Made by a program: the position numbers and the translations under genes. Under the pieces are notes generated by a model, which saw nothing but the letters and a program-made list of their open reading frames with translations, had not been told where the DNA came from and made no database searches. Shown one piece after another: positions 3,477-6,811 of a stretch of DNA of 32,000 nucleotides. This DNA is from Candidatus Thorarchaeota archaeon (lineage in GTDB: Archaea > Asgardarchaeota > Thorarchaeia > Thorarchaeales > Thorarchaeaceae), in the NCBI GenBank assembly GCA_003345555.1, contig PRDJ01000057.1, forward strand, positions 1 through 32,000, written 5' to 3'. The stretch's first letter is position 1. The number at the start of each line of letters is the position of its first letter.

Positions 3477-4547
3477 CTACTCATGCTTCGCGCGCTGAAT
3501 AAGAACGGCGGTCTCAATTATCGCAACGACGGACAGTAGACCGGACATCATGATTAGAACGAGATTTGTTACACCGCTTGAGTTGGAGGCTGCTCCATGC
3601 TCAAGGGCGGACACCAATACGCCGAGGTTGTAAGACATCATTGCCACATAGTCTGCGAACCCCGAGAATGACACGGTATTCCACCAAATCAGTGTCCCTC
3701 CGTAGTCTTGGACCAACTGGTAAGCGAACTCCCCACCAGTCTCGAGTCGGGAGACGTCAGAACCCAGAATCAATTGGATAGTGCCGTTTCTGAGTGCGTC
3801 TTGGACCGTTAGAAGTTCACCGGGGGAGATGAATACGTTCTCAACCTGTAGGACCGCATCACAAATGATTCCGAATGTCTCCGCCACATAGGCCTCCTCT
3901 GCAGCGACCACTATTGCCCGCATGCTTGAGAAATGATATTGTGAGTTTCGAACGGCCACTAGGTCTTCGAATCCCTGTACGTCACCAACGAATCCTCTGA
4001 AGTTAGCGTTCCAGATACTGGACATCGTGAAATTGAGCATGCCAAGGGCTGCGCGTGTGGCATTCGCTATAGCAATAGCATTACGCGGTAACAACCAATA
4101 TCCGTGAGGGTTCGCATTCTGTTCCTCTTGGGACGTCTGGTTGCCTTCTCCCGTTCCCGGCATGGCCGACAATGTTGCTCCATAGTCTTCGTATCGTGCA
4201 ATCGCACTGCTGTCCTCTAGGCTTACGAATGGTTTGCCGGTTTGATTAATCAAGTCCGTTTCCCATGGGAAGTGGCCTGTAAGAACGAGCAGGTCCGCCG
4301 CATTTGCAGCATTGACAACATCCTGCGGCAACTGAGATGCATGGGGATCCAATCCTTCAGGGAACAAGGTGGATGCATTCACGTAATCTCCCCCAACCTG
4401 CTGCGCAATCCCTGCAAGGGGGGCAATGGATCCAGCAACTCTCAGAACGTTAGAGCTGCGATTTGAGGGTGAAGCAGGTGCTGCCAGTGGATAGAGTGTC
4501 AGAAGTATCGCTGACACAACAGCAATCACAGCTCTCTTTCTGGCCAC
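3477..4547 (-). CDS. Metal ABC transporter substrate-binding protein (ZnuA/TroA, cluster A-I) with C-terminal membrane anchor
   Basis: Signal peptide; GLDPH and NPH.YWL metal motifs; many N-x-S/T sequons; C-terminal TM helix; RBS AGGAGGAG upstream of the GTG. Confidence 0.85.
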   Translation of the reverse strand: MARKRAVIAVVSAILLTLYPLAAPASPSNRSSNVLRVAGSIAPLAGIAQQVGGDYVNASTLFPEGLDPHASQLPQDVVNAANAADLLVLTGHFPWETDLINQTGKPFVSLEDSSAIARYEDYGATLSAMPGTGEGNQTSQEEQNANPHGYWLLPRNAIAIANATRAALGMLNFTMSSIWNANFRGFVGDVQGFEDLVAVRNSQYHFSSMRAIVVAAEEAYVAETFGIICDAVLQVENVFISPGELLTVQDALRNGTIQLILGSDVSRLETGGEFAYQLVQDYGGTLIWWNTVSFSGFADYVAMMSYNLGVLVSALEHGAASNSSGVTNLVLIMMSGLLSVVAIIETAVLIQRAKHE

Positions 4548-4569
4548 TGGTCTCTACTCCTCCTGTGTG

Positions 4570-4597
4570 ATATTAACATTTCATGGAATGCTAATAT
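4570..4597. promoter_or_regulatory. Putative NikR operator: 28-bp palindrome ATATTA-N16-TAATAT
   Basis: ATATTAACATTTCA|TGGAATGCTAATAT has 12 of 14 arm positions complementary. It lies between the divergent SBP and nikR genes and has the same 6-16-6 geometry as the E. coli NikR site. Confidence 0.7.
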
Positions 4598-4679
4598 TCT
4601 TAAGGGTTCCGACAGAAGGCAAGATGCATCCTCGTGTTGCATCGAGGCAGACTCGTCAACCGTAGTGCGGGCGACCAAG

Positions 4680-5075
4680 ATGGCAATAGTAGCAGTCTCA
4701 ATGCCTGATTCTGATTTGAACGAACTTGAGAAGATGCAGACCGATGGAGGTTTTTCCAGCAGGTCCGAAGTGGTCCGACACGCACTGCAGTCACTTATCG
4801 CCGAACAGAGGACGCTGGAATTGGCTTCAGGTGACATCACGGCAGTCTTCACGGTCATATACTCGGAAAGAGGAAAGAACGACCAGTGTGACCAAGTGCA
4901 GCACGACTACAGCCGAATGGTAGCTGCGGTCATGCATGCTCATGCGACCGATGGCGGTTGTGTTGAAGTGATGCTGGTCAAGGGAGCGGCGAGCGGCGTG
5001 AGGGAATTCCTGAATAGGCTCAGGACCCAAAGGCAGGTGATTCGCGTTCAGGTCAGTCTTGTGGGAGCACAATGA
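4680..5075 (+). CDS. nikR: NikR-family ribbon-helix-helix metal-responsive regulator
   Basis: N-terminal RHH (IVAVSMP..SSRSEVVRHAL) and ACT-like domain with H-x10-H-x-H-x5-C (QHDYSRMVAAVMHAHATDGGCVE), the exact spacing of E. coli NikR H76/H87/H89/C95. ATG at 4680. Confidence 0.9.
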   Translation: MAIVAVSMPDSDLNELEKMQTDGGFSSRSEVVRHALQSLIAEQRTLELASGDITAVFTVIYSERGKNDQCDQVQHDYSRMVAAVMHAHATDGGCVEVMLVKGAASGVREFLNRLRTQRQVIRVQVSLVGAQ

Positions 5076-5076
5076 T

Positions 5077-5880
5077 ATGGAACCCCGGTATCTATTCGAT
5101 GCTGCAGACCTGATGGTCAGGTATCCGAACGGCGAGGTAGCATTGCATGATGTCACGTTCAAAGTGAAAGCTCCATCATTTACTGCTATCATTGGGCCGA
5201 ATGGATCGGGGAAGAGCACCCTCCTCAAGACAGCACTGGGCATGATGAAGCCCATGAAGGGTTACATAAGAGTTCTCGGCTATGACTCTCAACGTGATAA
5301 GGCCAAGATACGAAGACTCGTACGATATGTGCCCCAGCGAGATCGGATTGGTCTCACTGTGCCTATGAAAGTGAAGGATATCGTGCTCATGGGCCGACTG
5401 TTGAAGAAGCTACCTCCAAGGCTTGCCTCCAGTCATGACGTCGAGGTCGCGAAGACTGCACTTGAACAGGTTGACATGCTTGACATGTGGAACCATCCTT
5501 TTCCTGAATTGTCTGGTGGTCAACGCCAAAGGGTTCTGGTTGCGAGAGCATTGGCTGGAGAGGGAGAGATACTCATGCTTGATGAACCTCTTACAGGCAC
5601 CGATATAGAGAGTCAGGATCTAATTGTGAAAGCTCTGAGCGAGTATCATGAGAATAATGAAGTCAGCATTGTAATCGTCACGCACGACCTGAATCCGGTC
5701 CATACGATGGTCGAGAATGTTCTTCTTCTCAAGGGAACCGTCGAAGGAATCGGCGAGCCATGTAGTATCATGGACCCAGAGATTGTTGCTCGCGTCTACG
5801 GACCAACGGCGAGGATAGTAGAGTATGGTGGGCACAAGTACTGTGTTATGAAGGATCTGGGATTTGATCGTCATGATTGA
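5077..5880 (+). CDS. Metal ABC transporter ATP-binding protein (ZnuC/MntA family)
   Basis: Walker A GPNGSGKST, YVPQ Q-loop, LSGGQRQR signature, LMLDEP, VTHD. ATG 5077 directly follows the nikR stop. Confidence 0.93.
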   Translation: MEPRYLFDAADLMVRYPNGEVALHDVTFKVKAPSFTAIIGPNGSGKSTLLKTALGMMKPMKGYIRVLGYDSQRDKAKIRRLVRYVPQRDRIGLTVPMKVKDIVLMGRLLKKLPPRLASSHDVEVAKTALEQVDMLDMWNHPFPELSGGQRQRVLVARALAGEGEILMLDEPLTGTDIESQDLIVKALSEYHENNEVSIVIVTHDLNPVHTMVENVLLLKGTVEGIGEPCSIMDPEIVARVYGPTARIVEYGGHKYCVMKDLGFDRHD

Positions 5881-6811
5881 TATCATTCAACTCATCTTAA
5901 CGACGCCGTTTCTGCAGCGCGCGCTCGTTGGTGCAATACTAATCGCCATCGTGTCCTCGACTAGCGGCACATTTCTTGTGTTCCGAGGGCTCTCGTTCAT
6001 GACCTCAGGTGTTGCTCATGCAGCTCTAGGCGGTGCAGCTCTGGGTTTGTTCCTGCAGTACACAGGAATAGCCCCTTGGTTCGACCCGATACTTGGAGCG
6101 CTTGTCTTTAGCGTCTTTGTGGCCTTGGTAACGGGCTACGCTGGCGAATCTGGAATAACGGAGAAAATGGAGGTTGCAGTCGGCGTATCCTTCGCATTAT
6201 CAATGAGCATTGCCGTGTTCCTGATGTACTATATTCCGCCAACTCAGGTTCCGCAAATTTGGGGCTATCTCATAGGCGATATCTTACTGCTGAACACCTT
6301 CGACATTATCATGTTAGCAGGAACCGCCTTGCTTCTTCTGCTGATCACGATGATGTTCAACAAGGAGTTCGTCTATGTCAGCGTTGACATGGAGGGCTCT
6401 CTTGCACATGGACTGAATGCACGCTTGTATCACTACTTGATGCTCATAACTTCAGCCCTCGCCATTGCTCTTGCTACCAAAGCTGTTGGGGCCATTCTTG
6501 TATATGCCATAATGGTTGCACCTGCCGCGGCGTCAAACGAGGTTGTCCATTCTGTGAGGGGTGTTGTGGTGGGAGTATTCTGCATAGCTGTGCTGTCAGA
6601 AGTGGTTGGACTCGTTGTGTCATTCGCAGTCAGGGCATCGCCGAGCGCGATTGCGGGAATCATCGCGGCATTGTCATATGTCATAGCGATGCAGATCAAG
6701 AGGATTCGAGAGCGGGTGAAGCAAGTTGGAGTCCCATCCAGGTCTCAGGACTTGAAGAAGACGATATCCCCGCCGACTCCAGACGGGCCTGATGCCAATC
6801 ATGCGCATTGA
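5873..6811 (+). CDS. Metal ABC transporter permease (ZnuB/MntB, ABC-3 family)
   Basis: FLQRAL, G.FLVFRGLSF...GVAHAALGG, YLIGDIL, KAVGAILV..IMVAPAAA. Overlaps the ATPase stop (ATGATTGA). Confidence 0.93.
   Translation: MIDIIQLILTTPFLQRALVGAILIAIVSSTSGTFLVFRGLSFMTSGVAHAALGGAALGLFLQYTGIAPWFDPILGALVFSVFVALVTGYAGESGITEKMEVAVGVSFALSMSIAVFLMYYIPPTQVPQIWGYLIGDILLLNTFDIIMLAGTALLLLLITMMFNKEFVYVSVDMEGSLAHGLNARLYHYLMLITSALAIALATKAVGAILVYAIMVAPAAASNEVVHSVRGVVVGVFCIAVLSEVVGLVVSFAVRASPSAIAGIIAALSYVIAMQIKRIRERVKQVGVPSRSQDLKKTISPPTPDGPDANHAH

Follow-up and report, generated by a model that had tools for sequence, protein, structure and literature searches.

A candidate operator of a divergent NikR-family regulator in the spacer of a ZnuABC-type metal-uptake locus of a thorarchaeon

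Genes and spacer at the locus

The window considered here is the whole stretch of DNA that was analysed, 32,000 nucleotides in length, and it encodes the components of an ABC-type metal importer in divergent orientation. On the minus strand lies the gene of a ZnuA/TroA-family (cluster A-I) substrate-binding protein of 356 aa (3477–4547; PF01297, 77.3 bits), which begins with a GTG codon. On the plus strand lies nikR-2 (4680–5075; ATG start at 4680), which encodes a protein of 131 aa with RHH and NikR_C domains, as identified by Pfam and alignment. It is followed by the gene of a Mnt/Azt/Znu-like ABC ATPase (5077–5880, plus strand), which begins 1 nt past the nikR-2 stop codon, and then by an ABC-3 family permease gene (5873–6811, plus strand), which overlaps the ATPase gene by 8 nt. 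The spacer between the divergent binding-protein gene and nikR-2 is 132 bp long.

The binding protein (3477–4547) has a signal-like N-terminal segment and a hydrophobic C-terminal segment. It is only distantly similar to solved Mn/Zn/Fe binders (best E 2e-6) and scores under every NCBIfam cut-off. The protein is also rich in N-x-S/T sequons. On the other side of the spacer, positions 4625–4666 in the predicted nikR-2 leader hold an ATG-started mini-ORF of 13 codons and a CCTCG...CGAGG hairpin; in an alignment with the closest relative, neither is kept. Among sequencing runs, the DNA of the locus is present only in wetland DNA metagenomes and in no RNA run, and the close relatives of NikR-2 carry the label of Candidatus Thorarchaeota MAGs.

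A palindrome upstream of the binding-protein gene

A preliminary description of this DNA reported a 28-bp palindrome in the spacer, with 12 of 14 positions paired and with the outer hexamers ATATTA-N16-TAATAT. Both the sequence and a repeat search confirm this: positions 4570–4597 consist of two abutting 14-nt arms, ATATTAACATTTCA and TGGAATGCTAATAT, which are 86% complementary (12/14 pairs). The palindrome lies just upstream of the binding-protein gene, as had also been described, with 22 nt between it and the GTG start codon at 4547.

Palindromes of this kind are rare. The whole genome of 2,277,301 bp holds no more than 11 even 28-bp palindromes with 12/14 pairs or better, and the chance expectation for one in a 132-bp spacer is roughly 6e-4. 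The whole-genome scan for RTATKA-N16-TMATAY, which had been proposed as a check, returned a single occurrence, at 4570–4597; when one mismatch is allowed, there is still one occurrence in the window. With only 11 comparable palindromes in the genome and a single occurrence of the motif, the palindrome at 4570–4597 is not a chance feature.

The conserved core of the element is offset by one base from the ATATTA/TAATAT hexamers. It is the heptamer TTAWTAA, present here as ATATTAA and CTAATAT, with heptamer centres 21 bp apart. The candidate operator is therefore described in this form, as the 28-bp dyad ATATTAA-N14-CTAATAT (4570–4597, without strand), which is the genus form of TTAWTAA-N14/15-TTAWTAA. 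When the spacer is aligned within the genus, GATATTAACA and TtAGGnTTCCG are its only blocks without variation. The left half-site, ATATTAA (4570–4576), falls within GATATTAACA, the sole invariant block of 10 nt. The right half-site, CTAATAT (4591–4597), has two mismatches to the consensus and is not conserved in the genus owing to a 7-bp indel; in two sister genomes, a 7-bp deletion yields ATATTAA-N14-TTATTAG, in which the right half-site coincides with the TATA box. TTAWTAA is a 7-bp palindrome by itself, as would suit an RHH dimer with two-fold symmetry; this also accounts for the occurrence of heptamer pairs in direct as well as inverted orientation.

Another inverted repeat, CCAGTGGATAGA / TCTGGCCACTGG, was observed at 4484–4495 and 4539–4550 (10/12 pairs, 43 nt apart); it spans the point where the binding-protein gene starts, including the start codon and codons of the signal peptide.

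Promoter context

A promoter motif was derived by EM over 1244 upstream regions of the same genome and then scored on the spacer. The motif, GAAAGGCTTATATG, is composed of a BRE-like gAA followed by C-TTAWAW, and promoter words in this genome peak 30–70 nt before start codons. The ribosome site, GGAGGTGA, is found at -8 to -15, with GGAGG peaking at -12 to -15. These motifs may help to annotate other regions of the genome (G000).

In the spacer, the best match to the BRE/TATA motif is GGAACCCTTAAGAA at 4597–4610 on the minus strand (8.3 bits, ~92nd percentile), which is the predicted promoter of the binding-protein gene. A Shine-Dalgarno-like GGAGGAG is located at 4557–4563 on the same strand, 9 nt before the GTG start codon. 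As the usual archaeal distance from TATA box to transcription start is ~26 nt, the binding-protein mRNA is predicted to start near 4574, inside the left heptamer, and to have a leader of ~27 nt that contains GGAGGAG. The dyad abuts the best BRE/TATA match, immediately downstream of GGAACCCTTAAGAA, and covers this predicted start, extending roughly from -23 to +5 relative to it. The CTTAAG core next to the dyad is palindromic and may also serve nikR-2 on the plus strand, with the right heptamer in BRE position. The dyad halves themselves, taken with their inner flanks, score 5.1 and 5.5 bits on the promoter motif, that is, about the promoter median, which suggests that operator and core promoter are intertwined. 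The earlier proposals that the palindrome overlaps the TATA region and may control both directions are consistent with this promoter model of the spacer, from which we infer them.

Since the halves score like ordinary promoters, the dyad might be read merely as the back-to-back BRE/TATA core promoters of the divergent genes, with no dedicated regulator, its symmetry arising from TATA boxes that face outward. The half-sites do fit an outward general TATA (C-TTAWAW), their inner flanks GAAAT are BRE-like, and TTAATA is enriched ~9-fold in the upstream regions of this genome. However, the spacer has a better BRE/TATA match immediately beyond the dyad, the Shine-Dalgarno site speaks against a leaderless start from the left half, and no other divergent spacer of the genome holds such a dyad. 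The comparison of genomes, presented below, bears on this reading from both sides.

NikR-2, a divergent member of the NikR family

The genome encodes two NikR-family proteins, NikR-1 and NikR-2. The RHH domain of NikR-2 is recognized by Pfam (RHH_1, 21.7 bits vs a cut-off of 20.5), and the protein is alignable to 1q5v and 2bj1 from residue 4. Its C-terminal NikR_C (ACT-like) metal-binding domain scores 54.7 bits (PF08753, cut-off 22). All four Ni ligands are present, namely the equivalents of E. coli H76, H87, H89, and C95 in a HMMER alignment with 1q5v, and they are kept in 20 of the 21 NikR-2 orthologs. NikR-2 nevertheless falls under the NCBI curated NikR cut-offs (best 83.1 bits vs 111; 66.6 vs 83), whereas NikR-1 exceeds its cut-off (128.1 vs 105), and this difference marks NikR-2 as a divergent subfamily. 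These sequence features support the classification of NikR-2 as a NikR-family protein of a divergent kind and a probable nickel sensor.

In E. coli NikR, the base-contacting residues are Arg3, Thr5, and Thr7 (2hzv); they determine specificity, not family membership. The recognition strand of NikR-2 reads M-A-I-V-A-V-S-M, in which I3, A5, and S7 stand at the positions of E. coli R3, T5, and T7 (R3-V-T5-I-T7). The strand (P/A)-I-V-A-(V/I)-S-M is found in nearly all 21 NikR-2 orthologs, one row of the alignment looking mis-started. A word-based homolog search with NikR-2 returned only close Thorarchaeia relatives, which are named generically as CopG or nickel-responsive regulator, and our literature search found no paper linking NikR with Asgard archaea.

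The dyad across orthologous loci

The divergent layout of binding-protein gene and nikR-2 recurs in 20 further genomes, of which 19 belong to the same family and one to another family. Orthologous loci, in which the binding-protein gene is divergent from a nikR-ATPase-permease operon, were compared through 31 distinct spacers. The phylogenetic footprinting that had been recommended for the regions upstream of orthologous binding-protein genes was carried out: the dyad TTAWTAA-N14/15-TTAWTAA occurs with at most 2 mismatches in 28 of the 31 distinct spacers. Dinucleotide shuffles of the spacers are on average 4–6 mismatches away from it. When strands are collapsed, the commonest 7-mer in the 31 spacers is TTAATAA/TTATTAA, present in 27.

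The spacing of the heptamers is sharply defined. For heptamers that differ from TTAWTAA by no more than one mismatch, the distances in the 31 loci have their main peaks at 21 bp (28 pairs, of which 12 are exact) and 22 bp (9 pairs). Secondary maxima at 30 and 50–51 bp correspond to two dyads per spacer in several genera; two dyads ~50 bp apart, as found in many genera, amount to four boxes for two promoters. Paired core promoters would fit these observations poorly: independent promoters would not need the constant spacing of 21/22 bp that is seen across genera, and many loci have more boxes than promoters. In addition, the heptamer carries 1.6–1.8 bits per position, compared with at most 0.8 for the general TATA.

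It is important to note how the motif has to be searched for. The window site has three mismatches to the family consensus, and 50 other positions of the genome are equally close by this count; mismatch count was rejected as a definition of the regulon for this reason, the matrix described next being able to separate the window site. Likewise, TTATTAA-N14-TTAATAA with at most one mismatch gives 68 sites in 61 genomes, vs 83 for the reversed control. In AT-rich spacers, a count of mismatches is by itself uninformative, and the analysis therefore turned to exact sites, to the statistics of spacing, and to a matrix. The matrix was symmetrised, trained on 29 sites from other genera only, and scanned over the whole genome. 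The window site ranks first genome-wide with 17.3 bits, followed by a position at 10.0 bits, and only four positions exceed 8 bits. The expectation that the motif could be used to define a regulon has thereby been put into practice with genome-wide scans, and in its own genome the regulon is this single divergent locus.

Association of the dyad with the type of regulator

Comparison of the two NikR paralogs and their relatives shows that the type of box follows the type of regulator. NikR-2 orthologs, with the strand (P/A)-I-V-A-(V/I)-S-M, have TTAWTAA dyads; only two GTGTTAC heptamers occur in total in the NikR-2 spacers, and none of the GTGTTAC type was found near nikR-2 in its own genome. 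NikR-1, encoded on contig C77 by a gene divergent from cbiM/nikM, has the strand K-R-F-G-V-S-V-P. Its spacer (G000 contig C77:7670–7800; L063/L031) holds GTGTTAC heptamers in three copies, phased at 20 and 22 bp, which are direct and not inverted repeats and stand directly after a CTTAAG TATA-like box. The GTGTTAC boxes are kept in most (about 12–13) of the 15 loci of the family and are unique in the genome. Compared with the TTAWTAA dyad, NikR-1 spacers mostly have 4–6 mismatches, with two loci at 2–3.

More distant proteins follow the same pattern. Four distant Asgard NikRs (~27–30% identity), whose N-terminus is M-P-I-(V/I)-S-(I/L)-S-L, all have an exact TTAWTAA-N15-TTAATAA just upstream (4/4); the first half is TTATTAA in three of these loci and TTAATAA in L024. 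Among four homologs with R-I-S/T-type strands, the dyad is found in 0/4. Two of the four distant PIV-type nikR genes are divergent from genes of a ZnuA-type binding protein and an ABC ATPase, and the other two (L024 and L028), each with its own dyad, have the gene of a P-type (E1-E2) ATPase as their divergent neighbour. The latter two loci suggest that P-type metal pumps, too, are under the control of the PIV-type subfamily.

Thirteen genomes have a transporter locus with no nikR-2 beside it; here, the genes of the binding protein and of the ATPase diverge directly from each other. The dyad is absent from 9 of these 13 loci (-7.9 to 2.3 bits), including within-genus contrasts in two genera, though a deletion removing nikR-2 could have taken part of the spacer too, and related genomes are non-independent samples. 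The remaining 4/13 (L096, L098, L100, and L103; genus g8) keep the element TTATTAG-N14-TTAATTA, 16–43 nt before the start, with 12.9–16.7 bits. Among these four genomes, a PIV-type NikR was found in only one (G010), elsewhere in the genome and with its own dyad. Taken together, the reciprocal boxes, the distant PIV-type loci, and the loci without nikR-2 indicate that the dyad is tied to the PIV-type regulator and not to the promoter of the binding-protein gene.

In other genera, TTAWTAA dyads of 22–35 bits are also present upstream of a dihydrolipoyl-dehydrogenase-like flavoprotein gene and of a gene for a membrane protein of 214 aa (P0005), which has 5–6 predicted membrane helices and no family match. 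The loci are L042, L047, L049, L050, and L056 (genera g6 and g3), as well as L046, L048, and L051. These genes are possible extra regulon members in those genera; no counterpart of their dyads was found in the window's genome.

These data also allow the competing explanations to be weighed. In favor of simple back-to-back promoters, the extra dyads of other genera lie mostly between divergent genes, and genus g8 keeps the element mostly without nikR-2. Against this, the dyad accompanies one regulator type into unrelated gene contexts, and with the evidence from spacing and information content we regard the promoter-only reading as improbable. Another explanation is that the dyad is the operator of a different transcription factor, encoded elsewhere in the genome. 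The high-scoring dyads beside the dihydrolipoyl-dehydrogenase-like and small membrane-protein genes of other genera, which have no evident link to nickel, could be taken in this sense, as could the retention of the element in genus g8 where no NikR-2 was found. But no further regulator is encoded at the locus, the dyad accompanies genes of PIV-type NikRs in four lineages and in three different gene contexts, it is lost together with nikR-2 in the 9 loci mentioned above, and its geometry is that of a NikR tetramer (PMC5385501); a separate factor thus seems quite unlikely to us. As for a role of the palindrome as a hairpin in the 5' leader RNA of the binding-protein gene, the minus-strand RNA does form an 11-bp stem (-11.6 kcal/mol, z = -1.9), but we give this reading hardly any credence, because the fold is a trivial consequence of the palindrome and 10/200 shuffles fold equally well, ortholog spacers are not self-complementary, the heptamers are conserved as sequence without compensatory change, and the predicted transcription start falls within the element.

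Proposed function and significance

On the strength of sequence comparison, we consider it highly probable that the palindrome serves as operator for NikR-2, which is encoded next to it, and is thus a predicted switch that turns off the flanking metal-uptake genes. The preliminary description had called it a NikR operator. Comparative genomics supports the assignment to the family; what has to be amended is the identity of the regulator, which would be the divergent paralog NikR-2; the canonical NikR has GTGTTAC boxes of its own elsewhere.

In the proposed mechanism, a NikR-2 tetramer would set its two RHH dimers on the two heptamers, two helical turns (21 bp) apart. With nickel bound as co-repressor, NikR-2 would then obstruct TBP/TFB or RNA polymerase. 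Promoter occlusion, and with it nickel-dependent repression, is the likely mechanism because the dyad abuts the BRE/TATA match and covers the predicted start, and it is from this arrangement that we infer repression rather than activation. On the other strand, the dyad would fill the BRE side of CTTAAG, which probably drives the nikR-2-ATPase-permease operon. Repression would in this way switch off both arms of the ZnuABC-type importer and nikR-2 itself.

A broader proposal, which we offer tentatively as a possibility somewhat short of probable, is that there is an Asgard-wide NikR-2 subfamily characterized by an Arg-to-Ile recognition strand and by a TATA-mimicking operator that would compete with TBP, and insulated from the NikR-1/GTGTTAC/NikMNQO system.

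Judged from its sequence and conservation, the site is well supported, though of a rather ordinary regulatory kind. What is new is the heptamer sequence, the divergent regulator subfamily, the ZnuABC-type target, the Asgard host, and the apparent insulation of two paralogs. To our knowledge, hardly anything is known of how Asgard archaea regulate their genes, and the locus offers a concrete, testable pair consisting of a single candidate regulator and a single site of 28 bp, found once in the genome. It is also a natural case of two NikR paralogs in one cell with apparently non-overlapping DNA specificities, TTAWTAA vs GTGTTAC. With the operator matrix, the regulon can be annotated across Thorarchaeia and related lineages. 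Finally, importers of the ZnuABC/TroABC type become candidates for archaeal nickel uptake, which would alter the annotation of such transporters.

Comparison with known operators and repressors

The E. coli NikR operator at PnikABCDE is GTATGA-N16-TCATAC (Chivers and Sauer, cited in PMC7055735). The window site resembles it in being a 28-bp dyad of the form 6-N16-6, with half-site centres 21 bp apart, and in lying over the promoter, here a predicted one, of a metal-uptake operon beside the regulator gene. The regulators are also alike, both having RHH and NikR_C domains and the same four Ni ligands. They differ in the DNA-reading strand, R-V-T-I-T in E. coli and I-V-A-V-S in NikR-2, which is under the NCBIfam NikR cut-offs. 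Unlike GTATGA, the window half-site is all A/T and matches it at 4/6 positions; the promoter is of the archaeal BRE/TATA type instead of sigma-70; and the target is a ZnuABC/TroABC-type importer instead of NikABCDE.

In H. pylori, NikR operators have the form TRTTA-N15-TAWTA, and one tetramer spans two helical turns (PMC5385501). The window's TATTA...TAATA fits both of these AT-rich pentamers exactly, with a spacer of N16 vs N15. Unlike NikR-2, the H. pylori protein is bacterial and pleiotropic, activates as well as represses, and keeps the Arg of the recognition strand. As it reads AT-rich sites with this Arg in place, the Arg-to-Ile change in NikR-2 is only suggestive with regard to specificity.

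The NikR signal of delta-proteobacteria, GTGTTAC-N13/14-GTAACAC (27–28 bp), precedes nickel transporters (Rodionov et al. 2004, PMC545781). It shares with the window site the architecture of two heptamers within 27–28 bp, whereas the heptamers themselves differ, matching at 4/7 positions. The delta-proteobacterial heptamer GTGTTAC is the one used by NikR-1 of the same genome before cbiM/nikM, but as direct repeats. Because the TTAWTAA and GTGTTAC heptamers differ, NikR-2 and NikR-1 appear to be insulated from each other.

In archaea, repressors such as MDR1, Phr, and LrpA bind either over the TATA box or shortly downstream of it. The candidate operator in the window is placed similarly, between TATA box and start, where binding should block the recruitment of TBP/TFB or of polymerase. 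MDR1, Phr, and LrpA belong to other protein families, and, unlike theirs, the half-sites of the window operator are themselves TATA-like.

With regard to the transporters, a 2009 survey of archaeal Ni/Co systems listed only Nik/CbiMNQO, NikABCDE, and NiCoT (PMC2667541). If the broader proposal of an Asgard-wide NikR-2 subfamily holds, ZnuABC-type importers and, in some lineages, P-type ATPases would be Ni (or Co) transporters, and these classes would add to those counted so far in archaea.
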